In this document: positions 56,801-63,524 of the stretch, in pieces | Layout of the letters: each line of letters begins with the position of its first letter | How positions within the stretch are numbered: the stretch's first letter is position 1 | Assembly: GCA_965242865.1 (NCBI GenBank) | Contig: CBDETK010000013.1 | Coordinates: 3,424,001-3,488,000 of the forward strand | Direction: 5' to 3' | Source of the DNA: Candidatus Latescibacterota bacterium | Lineage (GTDB): Bacteria; Latescibacterota; UBA2968; UBA8231 | DNA: 64,000 bases | The notes under the pieces: model-generated | What the model saw: the letters and a program-made list of their open reading frames with translations, nothing else | The model's database searches: none | Told to the model about the DNA's origin: nothing | Made by a program: the position numbers and the translations under genes

Positions 56801-58201
56801 ATGACTATAACGTCGAGAGGCGACGCATTGCGGGTAGGCGGATTCATCGCGGCCGGCGGCATCCTAATGGGGGCCACCGGAGCCTATGCCGCAGGCAGCG
56901 AAGAGCTACAATTCGTCTTCAACACCTTTTCGTTTCTTATCTGGGGTGCGCTCGTAATGTGGATGTGCGCGGGCTTTACCATGCTCGAAGCCGGTTCCGT
57001 CCGCACCAAGAACGCCTCCATGATCTGCCTCAAGAACGTCGGGCTTTATTCGATTGCCGGAATCACGTACTACTTGATCGGCTACAACCTCATGTACGTC
57101 GATGTGGGGGGCGGCTGGATTGGCACGCTCAAGTTTTTATACGGGCCTTCGGGCGAGGAGCTCACGCTGTTGAATGCGGGCGAAGCCGCCAAATCAGCCG
57201 CGGCCGCGGCCCTGATAAAGGGCCAGTCCTATGCCACCATGTCGGACTGGTTTTTTCAGATGGTCTTTGTGGCGACGACCGCTTCTATTGTATCGGGCAC
57301 GCTGGCTGAGCGAGTGAATTTGTGGGCGTTTTTTGTTTTTACGGCCGTGTTGACGATGATCATCTATCCCATCGTCGGGGCTTGGACTTGGGGCGGCGGC
57401 TGGCTCAGCGAAATGGGGTTTCAGGATTTCGCCGGCTCGACCATCGTCCATTCGACTGGGGGTTGGGCCGCACTCGCCGGGGCGCTCGTCGTCGGAGCGC
57501 GGTACGGAAAATTTCGCGCCGATGGCAGCGTCAAGAACACGCCGCCTTCCAATGTTCCCGCCGTGACGTTGGGCGTCTTCATTTTGTGGCTGGGGTGGTT
57601 CGGCTTCAACGGCGGCTCCCAACTCGCGCTGTCGAGCGCGACCGATGCGGTCGCCATGAGCCATGTCCTCGTGAATACCAACTTGGCCGCGGCGGCTGGC
57701 GTCATCGCTGCTCTCTTCTTGTCGCGGCCCCTCCTAGGACGCATCGATTTGGTCGCCGTTCTCAACGGCGCACTCGCCGGTCTCGTCTCCATTACGGCCG
57801 GCCCCGATATCGTCGATCACTACTGGGCCCTCGTAATCGGTGCTGTCGGTAGCGTGTTGTGCGTCGGCGGGATGCGGTTCTTGGAGGTCGTTAAGCTAGA
57901 CGACATAGTAGGGGCGATTCCGGTCCACCTGTTCGCCGGCATCTGGGGGACCCTGGCGGTCTGCATTGCAGCCGGTGGCAATTTCGGCGTCCAGCTCATC
58001 GGGGTGCTGGCGATAGGCGCGTTCGCGTTTGTGGCTTCGTGGATCTCGTGGTTAGTTCTGGGCAAGATAATCGGCGTGCGGGTGTCGCAGAGCGTTGAAG
58101 AGCTCGGCCAAGATACCGCAGAGCTCGGAATCGAAGCGTATTCCGAGTTTATGCTCATGCCCGATCAGGATGACGTCGACCAAATTCGGAACAATTCATA
58201 A
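56801..58201 (+). CDS. amtB: Ammonium transporter
   Basis: FQMVF, DFAGSTIVH, WFGFNGGS, NG.LAGLV.IT, DD..GAIPVH (twin His present). Confidence 0.95.
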   Translation: MTITSRGDALRVGGFIAAGGILMGATGAYAAGSEELQFVFNTFSFLIWGALVMWMCAGFTMLEAGSVRTKNASMICLKNVGLYSIAGITYYLIGYNLMYVDVGGGWIGTLKFLYGPSGEELTLLNAGEAAKSAAAAALIKGQSYATMSDWFFQMVFVATTASIVSGTLAERVNLWAFFVFTAVLTMIIYPIVGAWTWGGGWLSEMGFQDFAGSTIVHSTGGWAALAGALVVGARYGKFRADGSVKNTPPSNVPAVTLGVFILWLGWFGFNGGSQLALSSATDAVAMSHVLVNTNLAAAAGVIAALFLSRPLLGRIDLVAVLNGALAGLVSITAGPDIVDHYWALVIGAVGSVLCVGGMRFLEVVKLDDIVGAIPVHLFAGIWGTLAVCIAAGGNFGVQLIGVLAIGAFAFVASWISWLVLGKIIGVRVSQSVEELGQDTAELGIEAYSEFMLMPDQDDVDQIRNNS

Positions 58202-58251
58202 CCGGCCAAAAACCGGTACCCACCATTTAATTTAGAAAGGCAGGAGTTCGA

Positions 58252-58581
58252 GTGAACACCGAACAGAAGGAAGGCGTATTAATCGCCAAGCCCGAAGGCC
58301 GCATTGACGGGGTCAATGCCCGCGATTTTCACGAAGCCTTAACCAAGGCGATCGGCGCGGACAGCAGCCCGGTGCTCGTCGATTTGGCGGCCATCAACTA
58401 CATCAGCAGTGCGGGCCTGCGGACGTTTCTGCTGGTTGCTAAAACGCTCCAACAGCGCAGCGCTCAGTTCGCGCTGTGCTCGCTTTCGGATCCGATCCGG
58501 GAAATTTTCGAAATCAGCGGTTTTGACAAGATCATTGCGATCCACCCCTCCGAAGACGAGGCCCTCGCCGCCCTGTCGTAA
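58252..58581 (+). CDS. STAS-domain anti-sigma factor antagonist (RsbV/SpoIIAA-like)
   Basis: GRID, VDL..INYISSAGLR phosphoacceptor motif, IFEISGF. Confidence 0.92.
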   Translation: MNTEQKEGVLIAKPEGRIDGVNARDFHEALTKAIGADSSPVLVDLAAINYISSAGLRTFLLVAKTLQQRSAQFALCSLSDPIREIFEISGFDKIIAIHPSEDEALAALS

Positions 58582-58586
58582 CGCAA

Positions 58587-60773
58587 CTAAACTGAAGCGG
58601 GGGGAGCCGCCTCGTCTGAATCGGCGGCGGCTGATTGCAGGGCCATCGGCCGCACCGTGGGTAGCTCGATAGTCATCTCGGTAAATTCTCCCGGCTCGGA
58701 GTGAACCTTGATGGCCCCCCCGTGTTCGCGCACGATGTCGTTGGACAGCGCGAGCCCAAGCCCGGTTCCCTGATCGGTCGGCTTCGTCGTAAAGAACGGG
58801 TTGAAGATCTTATCGACGACCTCCGGCGGGATCCCGTTCCCATTGTCGCGAATGCGGACTTCGACTTGGTCGGGCATTCGCCGGGAGCTGATCCACAGCG
58901 TGGGTACGTAGTCGGATGGCGTCTCTGGCGAGTGGCGCTTCTCGTTGGTGGCGTAGCAGGCATTGCTCACCATGTTCAAAAAGACGCGGGCCAAGTCCTG
59001 CGGGACCACCTCTAACTCCCCGACCTCCTCGCTTAAATCCTCCTTGATGTCGAGCTGAAAATCCGAATTGGTCGCTCGGGCGCTGTGGAACGCGAGGCGG
59101 GTGTGTTCGTCGAGCAGGGCGTTGATCGCGGCGAATTGTGCATCGCCCGACCCGCGCCCCATCTGCAGCATGTCGCGGACAATGCGGTTGGCGCGCTCGC
59201 CGTGTTCGCGGATGCGCCCGAGATTATCGGTCAAGTCGCCGTTGATCTCGTTGATTAGCTCGCGCTGCTCTTCGTCTAGTTTCTGGCCGTCTTGCTCTAT
59301 AACCTCTTGCAATTCCTCCAACAGCTCCTCCGAGACCTCCGCAAAATTCTTCACGAAGTTCAGGGGATTCTGGATTTCGTGTGCCACGCCCGCGGTGAGC
59401 TCGCCCAATGCGGCTAGTTTTTCGCGCATGACGATTTGATCCTGTGCTTGCTGTAGATCTTCGAGCACATTTTCGAGCGTGGCGTTTTTCTCTTCCAAGT
59501 CGGCGGCCAGCTTTTCCACCAAGTTGAGCCGCTGAGCCTCCAAAGAGTTGCGGCGAAAAATTTCGAGGGCCACGGCCATGTCTGCGACCTCGTCGCGTCC
59601 GGTCATCTCGATCTTTGCCTCTAGGTCGCCGTCCGCCATGCGGCGCATTCGGTTCGACAAAAATTCGAGGCGGCGCAGCAGCACCCGACCGACGAACAGC
59701 CAAGCGATCAGAACCGCTCCGGCGATGCTGATCGCGTTGAGAGCGAGCAAAATTCTGCGGCCGGTGAAGATGGCTTGGGTGGAGGTTTGCGTGGCCTCTT
59801 GGGCACTCGTGCGGGCCGCATCCACTAGGCCCTCAACCTCGGCCACCAGTTCAACAGACAAATCGCGGTTGCGGTCGAGCAGTATCCGTTGCTGGTCGAC
59901 GATCTGGAGTTCCGAGGCACGGAGGGCAAAAATTTTCTCGTCCCCGCGGCCCAAGTCGAACAGGCGGTCAAAGGTCTGGCTAAGCGCGCTGTGCAAGGGG
60001 CCCTCGCCCAAGGTGGCGAGTTTCCGCTCAATTCCCTCGACTGTAGAATCGAAACGATCGCGCAAAGGCCCCAGCAGGCGCGCGTCCGACAAGTTGAACG
60101 TATTGGCCAGTTGCCGCATGGCCGTAGTAGCCCCTTCCTGCAATTCGGCTAGTGCGCGATAGCGAGAAAGTTCGGCCTCTGAAAGGTGCTGGACGCGGGG
60201 TGCGGGCGGTTCGCTGAGGGTGTGGTAGCCGGTCATTGCATAGAACAGCTGATCGTCGATGGCCGGAATCAAGATGCCGGTCAAATCACTTTGCAGGGTC
60301 TCTAGATTCTTGTGCAACCCGCGGCTGCGTGCGTTGAGCTCAAAGCGCTTGGCCACTGATTGCTCAATCGCCTTGATGTTGGCGATGAGGGTGTCGCCGT
60401 GGGCGCGAATCCGCGCGAACCGTTCCTCGGTCGCGCCCTGCTGGGTCAGGGCCGCCAATTGTTTCTTAAAGTCGTCCCGCTCGGAGACGACCTGGCCGGC
60501 CACCTCGGCAAACGCCATCGGGGTCTCGGCCGCTACCAAGCGCGGAGCGGCCGCTGCGAGGGAGCCGCTTTGCTGGGCGACCGCAAAAGCAGTGGCTATC
60601 TCCGGGACCGCCCGCTCGTTTACCTGACTTTGGGCCTCGCCGACTTGGTCGAAGGAAAACCAAGCCACCAAACTCGCGACCATGGTGAGAGCCGCGGCCG
60701 TGCCGATGCTCATGTAAAGTTGAAAGGCAATGCGGTGCCGGGCTGCGAACAGGCGTCTCAGGCGGGCGATCAT
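58587..60773 (-). CDS. Membrane sensor histidine kinase (helical extracytoplasmic domain, HAMP, HisKA, HATPase)
   Basis: Two TMs, HAMP GRDEVADM, AGVAHEIQNPL, DNGNGI, FFTTK, GTGLGL. Confidence 0.93.
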   Translation of the reverse strand: MIARLRRLFAARHRIAFQLYMSIGTAAALTMVASLVAWFSFDQVGEAQSQVNERAVPEIATAFAVAQQSGSLAAAAPRLVAAETPMAFAEVAGQVVSERDDFKKQLAALTQQGATEERFARIRAHGDTLIANIKAIEQSVAKRFELNARSRGLHKNLETLQSDLTGILIPAIDDQLFYAMTGYHTLSEPPAPRVQHLSEAELSRYRALAELQEGATTAMRQLANTFNLSDARLLGPLRDRFDSTVEGIERKLATLGEGPLHSALSQTFDRLFDLGRGDEKIFALRASELQIVDQQRILLDRNRDLSVELVAEVEGLVDAARTSAQEATQTSTQAIFTGRRILLALNAISIAGAVLIAWLFVGRVLLRRLEFLSNRMRRMADGDLEAKIEMTGRDEVADMAVALEIFRRNSLEAQRLNLVEKLAADLEEKNATLENVLEDLQQAQDQIVMREKLAALGELTAGVAHEIQNPLNFVKNFAEVSEELLEELQEVIEQDGQKLDEEQRELINEINGDLTDNLGRIREHGERANRIVRDMLQMGRGSGDAQFAAINALLDEHTRLAFHSARATNSDFQLDIKEDLSEEVGELEVVPQDLARVFLNMVSNACYATNEKRHSPETPSDYVPTLWISSRRMPDQVEVRIRDNGNGIPPEVVDKIFNPFFTTKPTDQGTGLGLALSNDIVREHGGAIKVHSEPGEFTEMTIELPTVRPMALQSAAADSDEAAPPASV

Positions 60774-61939
60774 GGCTGGGTCGCGCCCTTCAAGGAGCGG
60801 ATGGGGCGGTATTCGCCATCGCGGTCGATCGCGGTGAGGAAGACCGCGTCCGAACCCTGATTATCGCCATCCCCGTAGCGGAGCTTGAAGCCCTCTAGAT
60901 TGATGACATCGGCGCGGCGCAAGTTGTCTAATAGGCAGGCGCGGCTGACCTCCCGGCCGCAGCGGTCGAGGGCGGCGATGGCCAAGCGGCCGGCTAGATA
61001 GCCCTCGAATGAGACAAAGCTCGGCTCGGCCTTTGGAGCGTAGGCTGCGAGCGCATGGCTGTACGAGCCGACGATGGCCGGCTCGGTGGCTGTTGGAAAG
61101 GGCACGACTTGCGAGACCAAAACCCCCGTGCCGGCGGGCCCGAGTTCCCGCGCCAATGCTTTGCTGCCCACGAATGAGATGGCCGCAAAGATGGGGTTGA
61201 AATCGGTCGCTTGGGCCCAAGCGATTAAGGTGGCGACCGGCTGATAGGTCCCGACCAAGATCACGGCTTGGGGTTGGCCGCTGCGCAGGTCGAGTAAGGC
61301 GGTTTTTACCGCCTTGGTGTTGCGCGGATACACGCCGACGGACACGAGGGATAGCTCGCGCCGCTCTAGCGCATGCCGCACGCCGCGAAACCCTTCCCGG
61401 CCAAAGGAGTCGTCTTGATACATTATGGCAATGCGTTTGATGCCCAAGTCGTCGGTTAGGCGGGCGACGATTTCCTCGGTTTCCTGATAGTAGGAGGCGC
61501 GCATGTTGACCACGCCGTGCCACTTGGGGTCGCGGAGAAAATTACTGCCCGTGAAGGGAGCGATGTAAGGGACGCCAGCGTCTTCGGCAATGGGAACGGC
61601 CGCACGCGAGGTGGGGGTGCCAACGGCGCCGATCAGCGCGAAAACCCGCTCGCCCCCGATGAGCTGGCGGGTGTTGTCAATGGCGGCTTCCGGTTCGTAC
61701 CCGTCGTCAAACGAAACCAATTCGAGCCGACGCCCGTGGACCCCGCCCTGCTCATTCACCTCCCAGAAGGCCGTCTGCATCCCGAGCCGCATGTTCCGGC
61801 CCAACTCCTGGGCTGGCCCGCTAAAGGCGGCCGATTGGCCAAAGAGGATACTCCGGTCGGAGACGCCGGGTTGCTCCTCGCCGCGCACAGCACCCGCCAC
61901 CAGCAACGCGACCGCACACAGAGCAAGCACGCGGTTCAA
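60770..61939 (-). CDS. Periplasmic type I (Leu/Ile/Val-like) substrate-binding protein
   Basis: Signal peptide, GQSAAFSGP, GGVHGR, DDGYEP, RASY, YQDDSFG. Confidence 0.88.
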   Translation of the reverse strand: MNRVLALCAVALLVAGAVRGEEQPGVSDRSILFGQSAAFSGPAQELGRNMRLGMQTAFWEVNEQGGVHGRRLELVSFDDGYEPEAAIDNTRQLIGGERVFALIGAVGTPTSRAAVPIAEDAGVPYIAPFTGSNFLRDPKWHGVVNMRASYYQETEEIVARLTDDLGIKRIAIMYQDDSFGREGFRGVRHALERRELSLVSVGVYPRNTKAVKTALLDLRSGQPQAVILVGTYQPVATLIAWAQATDFNPIFAAISFVGSKALARELGPAGTGVLVSQVVPFPTATEPAIVGSYSHALAAYAPKAEPSFVSFEGYLAGRLAIAALDRCGREVSRACLLDNLRRADVINLEGFKLRYGDGDNQGSDAVFLTAIDRDGEYRPIRSLKGATQP

Positions 61940-62358
61940 CTAGCCCTCCGCTTGACCAAGGTCAGGCAGTTTTTGTCCTGCTGTCGCTGGTAGTGAACTT
62001 CGTCCATCATGGTGCGCACGAGGTGGACGCCGAGGCCGCCCACGGTGCGGTCCTCAACGGCGGCTTCCACGTCTGGCTCGGGAGCGTCGCTGAGCGGGTT
62101 GAAGGCCTGGCCGTCGTCCTCGATCTCGATTGTGATCGCCTCGGCTTCTGAAGAGATGACGATCTTGATTTCGTGGACTTTGTCGTCGTCGTGCCCGTAC
62201 TCGACGATGTTGACCCCCAATTCCTCAATGGCCAGCCCAATCTGAAAGGTGACGTCTGGAGGCCAGTTCTCTTCCTCGGCCAGCTCCTCAATAGCGGCGT
62301 TGACTTTGCGTAGTTCGTCTAGATCAGTCGCCATGCAGAGCGATCGCTGGGCACTCAT
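61936..62358 (-). CDS. RsbW/SpoIIAB-like anti-sigma factor Ser kinase (HATPase_c_2)
   Basis: LAIEELGVNIVEY, EDDGQAFNP, GGLGVHLV..MMDEV.Y. Confidence 0.9.
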   Translation of the reverse strand: MSAQRSLCMATDLDELRKVNAAIEELAEEENWPPDVTFQIGLAIEELGVNIVEYGHDDDKVHEIKIVISSEAEAITIEIEDDGQAFNPLSDAPEPDVEAAVEDRTVGGLGVHLVRTMMDEVHYQRQQDKNCLTLVKRRAS

Positions 62359-63524
62359 TGGTCGGTCCCGTTGTAGCAAAGCGTCAGGCAGGTGACGTCG
62401 TCAAATTGAGGTGCCGCGCCGGCAAAGGTCTCGACCGCCTCAAAAACGGCCGCGTTGGTGGCGCGGACATCTTGGACGCCCTCCTTGGTACAAACCTCGC
62501 ACAGGCGCTCTAGCCCGAACTGATCGCCTTGGTCGTTTTCGGCTTCGGGGACGCCGTCGGTGTACAAAATGACGCGGTCGCCGGGCCGCAGGGTCACCGA
62601 GGTTTCTTCAAAGGTGAACTCTGGCACCACGCCGAGAGCCACCCCGCCAGTCGTTGGCAGCAGGGTCGAGCTGCCGTCGGCGTGGACCACAACCGGCGTG
62701 TTGTGCCCGCCATTGGCATAGGTAAACTCGCCGTTTGCCGGGTCGAAGGTCGCGTAAAAGACGGTTACGAACATGGCGGCGTCGTTTTCTTCTTGCAGCA
62801 GTTGATTGACTTCGCTCAAGACCTTGCCCGGCGCGTCGTGGCCGATAGCCGCGCCCTTTAGGAGGGTCCGGCTCGACATCATAAACAGGGCCGCCGGTAC
62901 GCCCTTGTCCGAGACATCGGCGACGACGACACCGATGCGGTCGTCTTCGAGGGCCAAGACATCGAAGAAATCGCCGCCAACGTCGCGCGCGGGCTTCATG
63001 CTGCCGAAAATTTCAAAGCCCGGCCCCTTGGGAAAGCTGGTGGGCAAGATCGACTGCTGCATCTTGTTGGCCACGTTGAGTTCGTTTTGCAGGGCGACCA
63101 ACTTGTCGCGCGATTCGAGCGCCTCGCGCCACAGCTCTAGATGGCGCAAGGTCCGCTGGATAGTCACCTTCATGTCCTCGAAGTCAATGGGCTTGGTGAC
63201 GAAGTCAAACGCGCCGCGGTTCATGGCCGTGCGGATGTTCTTCATGTCGCCATACGCCGAGACGATGACCGAGCGGATGTTGGGATCCACCTTGGGGATC
63301 TGCTCCAGCAAGGTGAGCCCGTCCATCCGGGGCATGTTGATATCCGAGAGCACCATGTCGATGTCTTGCTCTTCGCTTAGCACCTCTAGGGCCTCAACGC
63401 CGTTGTGGGCGAACATAAAGCTGTACTGGCCCGAGCGAATCTCGCGGCGCATGCGCTGCCTCACTAGGTGCTCTAAATCTGGCTCGTCATCAACGACGAG
63501 GATCTTGGGTCGTAAGGTTGCCAT
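62355..63524 (-). CDS. Response regulator-PP2C (SpoIIE/RsbU-like) phosphatase
   Basis: REC: VVDDE, SDINMP, KP. PP2C: VGGDFFD, ADVSDKG, MFVT, YTDGV, DDVT. Confidence 0.93.
   Translation of the reverse strand: MATLRPKILVVDDEPDLEHLVRQRMRREIRSGQYSFMFAHNGVEALEVLSEEQDIDMVLSDINMPRMDGLTLLEQIPKVDPNIRSVIVSAYGDMKNIRTAMNRGAFDFVTKPIDFEDMKVTIQRTLRHLELWREALESRDKLVALQNELNVANKMQQSILPTSFPKGPGFEIFGSMKPARDVGGDFFDVLALEDDRIGVVVADVSDKGVPAALFMMSSRTLLKGAAIGHDAPGKVLSEVNQLLQEENDAAMFVTVFYATFDPANGEFTYANGGHNTPVVVHADGSSTLLPTTGGVALGVVPEFTFEETSVTLRPGDRVILYTDGVPEAENDQGDQFGLERLCEVCTKEGVQDVRATNAAVFEAVETFAGAAPQFDDVTCLTLCYNGTDQ

Follow-up and report, generated by a model that had tools for sequence, protein, structure and literature searches.

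An ammonium transporter clade without glnK linkage, associated with a sigma-less STAS partner switch in Latescibacterota and other phyla

Introduction

GlnK control of Amt ammonium transporters is treated as the standard prokaryotic rule. In other systems a STAS or PII-like module acts on a transporter (SulP/SLC26-STAS, SbtA-SbtB), and TorT-TorS and LuxP-LuxQ are sensors built from a binding protein and a kinase. The accessible part of PMC3870248 describes the role of GlnK toward AmtB and raises, for SAR11, the open question of how ammonium uptake is controlled in PII-less bacteria. In the available portion of PMC8256260, the stand-alone STAS proteins of sigma-less partner switches (SypA, BtrV) are without known targets, and no transporter is named as the target of such a switch. 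Here we analyze a window of 64,000 nucleotides from a Candidatus Latescibacterota bacterium (assembly GCA_965242865.1, contig CBDETK010000013.1, positions 3,424,001-3,488,000 of the forward strand), in which a six-gene unit places an amt gene beside a STAS gene and a convergent operon encoding a phosphatase, a serine kinase, a periplasmic binding protein (SBP), and a histidine kinase (HK). The locus is a concrete candidate for both PII-less Amt control and the target of a sigma-less STAS protein, defined by an Amt clade, a one-serine STAS protein, the kinase and phosphatase that go with it, and a small set of cytoplasmic residues fixed in the clade. Full-text searches of literature largely outside the subscription journals listed no description of an Amt-STAS or PII-STAS link.

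The window protein shares with Escherichia coli AmtB-GlnK (2NS1, 2NUU) the Amt fold (TM 0.81), the twin His, the Phe gate, and a small soluble protein encoded adjacent to it. In contrast to AmtB-GlnK, the neighbor is a phosphorylatable STAS protein where AmtB has a PII trimer, the window Amt has remodelled loops and a remodelled tail on its cytoplasmic side, and the input would be an outside ligand acting through the HK and PP2C rather than uridylylation or 2-oxoglutarate. The PP2C, the RsbW-like kinase, and a STAS protein with a conserved serine are also found in RsbU/V/W-SigB and SpoIIE/AA/AB-SigF. As in TorT-TorS and LuxP-LuxQ, translational coupling joins a periplasmic binding protein that lacks a transporter to a kinase whose sensor domain is TorS-like; unlike them, the window has a LivJ-type binding protein, an orthodox kinase, and a phosphatase, not a transcription factor, as receiver. 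In SulP/SLC26-STAS and SbtA-SbtB, by contrast, the STAS is fused and lies outside a kinase/phosphatase switch, and neither transporter type is related to Amt. Among the switches covered in the portion of PMC8256260 noted above, PA3346/PA3347 has a similar receiver (REC)-controlled phosphatase and SypE/SypA and BtrU/V/W likewise lack an adjacent sigma factor; in contrast to all of those described there, including Chlamydia Rsb, no SigB/F/G was found for the window type, which is linked to ammonium transport and other nitrogen genes. The nearest solved Amt structures are Sd-Amt1 and Ks-Amt5 (35-37% identity to the window Amt), which, like the SAR11 Amt-GI5 phosphatase fusion, tie an Amt to a phospho-signaling module in the accessible parts of PMC11152129 and PMC11796062. 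Unlike these receptors, the window Amt has no fused transducer, misses the N2 ligand Asp, and has a separate STAS as its putative partner. The system lies outside the glnK-amtB, ammonium-receptor, and canonical SigB families: no PII gene adjoins the window amt, and no cognate SigB/F/G was found for the switch. The partner-switching components are recognized from domains and motifs (a STAS with a phosphorylatable serine, an RsbW-like kinase, and a PP2C). By analogy, it would resemble GlnK control joined to a SypA/BtrV-type sigma-less switch.

Genomic linkage and co-occurrence

The window Amt belongs to a clade marked by a C-terminal tail of the form GQDxxELGxxAYPEF[VM]LMP followed by acidic residues, in place of the GLD...YPEF tail of outgroup Amts. 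Its closest GTDB relatives are 62-77% identical and come from Pseudomonadota, Binatota, Nitrospirota, Acidobacteriota, Gemmatimonadota, Spirochaetota, Chloroflexota, and Actinomycetota. Across 80 GTDB loci, glnK flanks none of 45 clade loci versus 24 of 35 outgroup loci. A metagenome scan gave PII genes beside 0/21 clade and 41/59 outgroup loci, where the clade set comprises 20 members called by pattern plus one (L192) called by its GQD tail; some of the metagenome records may come from organisms already among the GTDB loci. Loss of the glnK linkage in the clade is therefore supported. In the window genome, glnK lies 1.3 Mb away, in a canonical pair with another amt, and there are two further PII genes; the suggestion in the initial annotation that STAS stands "instead of GlnK" hence applies to the Amt clade and fails for the genome, a distinction that emerged from locating glnK and the other amt copies as it had proposed. 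No PII match was found in 8 of 53 clade genomes, and in five (G057, G063, G072, G044, G069; three are chromosome-level records, with completeness not given) the clade Amt is the only Amt and there is no PII match. Weak PII-family matches in clade genomes were considered as partners and rejected: of 17 fetched, none lies beside amt or STAS and none matches GlnK.

In part of the clade, switch genes stand beside amt. The order amt-stas followed by the convergent hk is kept in all 18 orthologous loci of the genus; in a nineteenth genome stas adjoins a fragment of amt at the end of a contig. Both genes are missing from five genus-mates, one of which is only 58% complete. Switch genes flank 14 of 45 clade loci in GTDB, in about ten gene orders overall, and 7/21 clade loci versus 0/59 outgroup loci in the metagenome scan. 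Among outgroup GTDB loci they occur at one only (L074), with two REC-PP2C genes and no STAS. The commonest minimal unit is amt followed directly by stas (the window genus; L043, L050, L051, L056, L057, L183, L188, L194, L197). Besides the window order, the others are rsbW-amt-stas; amt-stas-pp2c-rsbW-sbp-hk; stas-pp2c-rsbW-sbp-hk-amt; rsbW-stas-amt divergent from pp2c-sbp-hk; amt convergent on stas-pp2c-rsbW; and amt convergent on the whole cassette in two arrangements. A second, different cassette with a membrane PP2C flanks clade amts at L073, L085, L175, and L185. Because the link is kept in 18/18 genus loci and recurs in other phyla in other orders, it is not due to chance and survives rearrangement; the neighborhood conservation that the initial annotation had asked about is thus found within the genus and outside it.

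Co-occurrence extends to genomes where the genes are unlinked. A STAS homolog (E at most 1e-8) is present in 53/53 clade genomes versus 3/35 outgroup genomes. In an even draw of 251 Dehalococcoidia, with clade Amt called by score and tails not checked one by one, 37 genomes have a clade Amt, 49 a close STAS (E at most 2e-24; 61 genomes at 1e-12), and 36 both; the only Amt-positive genome without a close STAS is a fragmented assembly. The relation is one-sided: the clade Amt needs the switch, and the switch does not need the clade Amt. A mirror-distance correlation of Amt and STAS (r 0.46, 46 pairs) was left unused, as host kinship or co-transfer would give the same.

It is very improbable that amt and cassette were merely captured on one mobile block and spread within one habitat with no functional link. 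The clade does jump phyla at the identities given above, most of its loci are unlinked, and many of its record titles name sponge-associated lineages. Against such passive transfer, about ten gene orders, two different cassettes, and two Amt types keep the link, STAS is retained in 36/37 Amt genomes even when unlinked, and the substitution bias described below needs selection.

Two further features were seen in these genomes. A membrane-protein-like gene of ~250-300 aa with the motif ELVPLLVT lies beside the cassette at L162, L163, L164, L166, L167, L168, and L177, which belong to several Dehalococcoidia, including some without a clade Amt. At L174 (G030:C2:3942223-3943229), an amt in two frames is followed by a PAS/histidine-kinase gene; the pair is probably an Amt-kinase sensor broken by a frameshift, and its host is a relative with the switch and without the clade Amt.

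The Amt clade and its cytoplasmic face

By fold and family models, the window protein is a member of the Amt/Mep/Rh family and a predicted transporter. It matches PF00909 (E 1e-98) and has a signal-peptide-like N-terminus, 11 helices, and an acidic C-terminal tail. Its structure model (pLDDT 87, tail ~60) shows a normal Amt fold, and the pore residues F156, H217, and H376 are retained; the Phe gate, the Trp/Ser site, and the twin His, aligned to Sd-Amt1, are invariant in 57 rows. The TIGR03644 "marine subtype" model scores 520 bits (cut-off 514), as against 118 for the AmtB model (cut-off 657), so that the earlier label amtB holds for the family but not for the E. coli type. In a quick tree of 102 rows the clade forms one branch (SH-aLRT 100), in which the single unmatched row is a frame-broken member. 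A careful tree of 52 rows with tail columns removed, for which 50 rows were left out and the bootstrap had not fully settled, gives the clade 100/100 support, with a stem of 0.35, and places it within glnK-linked Amts of Alphaproteobacteria. Among the proteins of the window genome, the tail motif occurs in the Amt itself only.

Residues that distinguish the clade are concentrated on one side of the membrane. Comparison of 54 clade with 33 outgroup rows over residues 38-450, using helix midpoints from the model, gave 22 diagnostic substitutions, 20 of them on the cytoplasmic half, versus 110 of 219 non-diagnostic conserved sites (110 vs 109; Fisher p 2e-4). The bias is absent from three control splits (1:2, 2:6, and 15:10). 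P249, V255, R314, and Q437 are fixed in 54/54 clade rows, which therefore indicates new constraint and not only decay. Median net charge of the tail is -4.5 in the clade, compared with +1 in the outgroup. The pattern would fit a change of cytoplasmic partner, although it does not give that partner's identity.

That the closest solved structures are the receptors Sd-Amt1 and Ks-Amt5 raises the question of direction: the Amt may instead be an input. It would then signal ammonium flux either through capture and release of STAS, much as AmtB sequesters GlnK, or through an effect on the kinase or the phosphatase, with the output elsewhere. SAR11 Amt-phosphatase fusions are described in the accessible part of PMC11796062, and the genomic evidence for contact fits either direction. 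In the available text of PMC11152129 the receptor pocket N1/N2 comprises Glu29, Asn45, Asp48, Thr104, and Ser107, with Lys44 and Tyr119. The window Amt has E63, K78, N79, S162, and S165, but Sd-Amt1 Asp48 is replaced by Leu82, Gln22 by Cys56, and Tyr119 by Phe177, as in outgroup transporters, and the protein ends ~20 residues past the Amt domain, with no fused C-terminal transducer. A pure ammonium receptor was ruled out on this incomplete signature. An input role is improbable on the same ground, and also because the clade Amt is the sole Amt in five genomes and the switch, which receives input through its own SBP and HK, also works where the clade Amt is absent.

Locus layout and switch proteins

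The six genes of the unit are listed in Table 1. A gap of 50 nucleotides containing a ribosome-binding site separates amt from stas, which ends 5 nucleotides from the end of the convergent operon (REC-PP2C, RsbW-like kinase, SBP, HK). All three junctions of this operon are 4-nucleotide start/stop overlaps (ATGA, TTGA, ATGA), which makes 62358 (140 aa) the most likely start of the kinase, rather than 62379. Neither a PII nor a sigma gene flanks the unit. The initial annotation had described this arrangement, including the YISSAGLR motif, the overlapping operon, and the lack of PII and sigma genes, and each of these points was reproduced from the coordinates. The candidate amt promoter block is conserved across 10 genus sequences and lies below the consensus-scan threshold; a promoter and terminator scan gave nothing above shuffled sequence. 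The block is sigma-70-like, whereas a sigma-54-like TGGCAC-N5-TTGC lies upstream of the genome's canonical amt.

Table 1. Features of the amt-switch unit in the window, and degenerate PII genes found between canonical amt and stas at four Chloroflexota loci
Feature	Position	Strand	Length	Basis
amt (GlnK-less "GQD" clade ammonium transporter)	56801..58201	+	466 aa	PF00909, TIGR03644, Amt-fold model, tree
Stand-alone STAS (RsbV/SpoIIAA type)	58252..58581	+	109 aa, GTG start	PF01740, TIGR00377
Membrane histidine kinase (HK)	58587..60773	-	728 aa	PF21689 (E 7e-9), PF00672, PF00512, PF02518
Type I (LivJ-like) periplasmic binding protein (SBP)	60770..61939	-		PF13458
RsbW/SpoIIAB-like serine kinase	61936..62358	-	140 aa	PF13581 (E 1e-28)
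REC-PP2C (SpoIIE-type) phosphatase	62355..63524	-	389 aa	PF00072 + PF07228
Candidate sigma-70-like promoter of amt	56713..56741	+		TTGCGC/TTGCGA, 17 nt, TATTGT/TATAGT; predicted
Degenerate PII	L123:7750-8061
Degenerate PII	L172:8414-8725
Degenerate PII	L262:2006-2308
Degenerate PII	L268:959-1270

The predicted STAS phospho-site is Ser53 of YISSAGLR, and S52, S53, G55, and R57 are invariant in 57/57 aligned relatives. The helix following Ser53 has a net charge of +3. The window STAS is the only stand-alone STAS of the genome, the other two matches sitting in frames of at least 600 aa. The RsbW-like kinase, which falls under the RsbW and SpoIIAB equivalog cut-offs, and the REC-PP2C, with the receiver Asp and four metal-binding motifs present, are likewise the only strong copies (for the REC-PP2C, the only strong SpoIIE match). 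As each is the only strong copy in a 6.0-Mb genome, the three proteins are very likely cognate. The HK combines a TorS-like periplasmic sensor, HAMP, HisKA, and HATPase domains, with H, N, G1, F, and G2 boxes visible. The SBP has 4KV7 as its nearest solved structure (38% identity, TM 0.93), and a fold search returned generic LivJ-type relatives only. In the window and the mapped cassette loci it sits between rsbW or pp2c and the HK gene, with no room for ABC permease or ATPase genes and none accompanying it; it is presumed to be a co-sensor of the HK. Separately, a group of STAS proteins (P0135, P0136, P0166, P0172, P0179, P0183, P0185, and P0186) has a conserved ~90-aa C-terminal helical domain without a Pfam match.

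A sigma factor would be the conventional output. None of 61 switch-bearing genomes has SigB/F/G over the TIGR02980 cut-off, while a B. subtilis control set matches once; the remark in the initial annotation that no sigma factor is present thus extends beyond the locus. In 22 of the 61 there is a single sigma match at E 1e-25, presumably RpoD, and of 63 rsbW loci one (L169) carries a sigma gene, an ECF type divergent from stas. A canonical anti-sigma output is unlikely, and RpoD or an ECF factor could still be a target.

PII and other nitrogen genes

The switch also recurs beside other nitrogen genes. At 12 of 45 loci, the clade amt is flanked by all or part of a trio of CP-ATP-grasp, alpha-E, and transglutaminase genes. 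STAS accompanies a close CP-ATP-grasp clade in 23/24 genomes, and at loci where stas is not next to the clade amt it can directly follow the transglutaminase of the trio (L122, L131) or glnE (L138). The nitrogen-related output that had been proposed at the outset is in keeping with this repeated placement. Amt as that output fares less evenly: the amt-STAS linkage is conserved, but Amt as the sole output is contradicted by the cassettes that lack a clade Amt and by the canonical amt-PII-stas loci, both described below.

These neighbors allow a reading without contact, in which the switch regulates nitrogen status via another target and amt is co-regulated, with the Amt itself unregulated post-translationally. 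Candidates for that target are the trio, GlnE, an ECF sigma, and, following the Chlamydia example, the housekeeping sigma. The absence of a clade Amt from 13 of the 49 genomes with a close STAS would then be natural, the more so as the close CP-ATP-grasp clade is as tightly tied to STAS and covers 5 of those 13; the stas positions at L122, L131, and L138, the ECF gene at L169, and the action of C. trachomatis RsbW on sigma-66, given in the accessible part of PMC8256260, point the same way. We nevertheless regard this reading as unlikely. It leaves unexplained the newly fixed cytoplasmic-face residues, the recurring minimal amt-stas pair, and PII-STAS fusions; the 61 genomes have no SigB/F/G, and the close CP-ATP-grasp is missing from 18/37 Amt-positive genomes.

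The trio, which shows high identity across phyla and often flanks a clade amt or the switch, is a candidate second client. It is found at G000:C13:1614389-1617725, L045, L046, L055, L058, L062, L067, L070, L073, L076, L082, L085, and L087. In one STAS cluster, P0122, a single frame of 431 aa spans transglutaminase and STAS; of the five members listed, two are full length. This is either a fusion or a read-through of adjacent genes such as those in L122.

Some arrangements contain PII itself. Four Chloroflexota loci have a canonical amt-PII-stas-pp2c-rsbW order (L123, L172, L262, and L268), in which PII keeps the T-loop Arg and Tyr and has lost the GDGK B-loop and the C-terminal RIR arginines. 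The B-loop and C-terminal arginine residues of PII bind ATP and 2-oxoglutarate. Of 73 PII matches in the studied loci, 65 fit the B-loop pattern; the misses besides the four degenerate PIIs are four, namely one GDGKL variant and frame artefacts. A search of longer STAS proteins yielded five clusters of PII-STAS fusions of 222-228 aa (P0138, P0139, P0144, P0146, and P0148), two of them above the Pfam P-II cut-off. They comprise a PII domain without the GDGK B-loop and with a T-loop shortened by 13 residues, a Pro/Ala/Glu linker, and an intact STAS; their genomic context was not found in 401 Dehalococcoidia and 98 genomes of a second Chloroflexota class, and an Atlas search returned no usable match. 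Together, these operons and fusions would point to STAS acting at the Amt-PII complex.

Proposed mechanism

The reading we prefer, with confidence about evenly divided, is that STAS may gate the clade Amt from its cytoplasmic side, the Amt being one among several nitrogen-related clients of a sigma-less switch. From domain content and known systems we infer a relay in which an outside ligand would bind the LivJ-type pocket of the SBP and set the TorS-like HK, which would phosphorylate the receiver of REC-PP2C; PP2C and the RsbW-like kinase, acting in opposition, would then set the phosphorylation state of STAS Ser53. The genomics suggest that one form of STAS could bind the Amt trimer at its acidic tail and remodelled cytoplasmic face and gate transport, as GlnK does for AmtB. 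Our guess, a weak one, is that unphosphorylated STAS would bind and close the channel when organic nitrogen is plentiful. The clade Amt would be a dedicated client under post-translational control, with STAS in the role that GlnK once had.

Several observations weigh against STAS gating of the Amt. No switch gene lies within the flank (up to 9 kb; some flanks are short) of 31 of 45 clade loci in GTDB and 14 of 21 in metagenomes, G043 has the cassette close to amt and its STAS elsewhere, and no Amt-STAS fusion occurs among the 120 longer STAS matches listed. The 1e-8 cut-off for STAS is loose, and that of 2e-24 was chosen after seeing the list. Among the Dehalococcoidia, a close STAS occurs without a clade Amt in 13 of 49 genomes, of which the 11 fetched keep the cassette, and G030 also has the switch without a clade Amt. 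The hosts appear to share habitat and gene pool, which, with kinship, makes the genomes non-independent and inflates co-occurrence. For the basic STAS helix there is no control, and it may be a trait of RsbV-type proteins in general. The window genome keeps its separate canonical amt-glnK, and the amt-PII-stas operons and PII-STAS fusions show that STAS and PII are not always alternatives.

As to origin, it is possible, and we advance it tentatively, that a STAS phospho-switch replaced PII as the Amt gate, first by assuming the sensing role beside a degenerate, effector-blind GlnK and then by binding the remodelled Amt directly. The stages would be represented by amt-PII-stas operons, PII-STAS fusions, and direct binding in the GQD clade. 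If so, ammonium uptake in these bacteria would answer to an extracellular ligand and not to internal 2-oxoglutarate or glutamine. Alongside PII plugging and the tail phosphorylation known from eukaryotes, it would add a third way of controlling Amt, one that spread laterally across at least eight phyla.

Neighboring genes

Upstream of amt lies a gene for an AAA ATPase (576 aa; 54941-56671, plus strand) with weak matches to the AriA, GajA, and OLD defence models and with close paralogs at C13:2195822 and C13:5324436. It was rejected as part of the system: it adjoins amt in only 8/18 genus loci, has three close paralogs, and its matches are defence-like. Farther upstream in the window (48889-50868, plus strand) is a secreted protein with tandem, putatively YWTD-like repeats and a C-terminal, putatively FlgD-Ig-like sorting domain.

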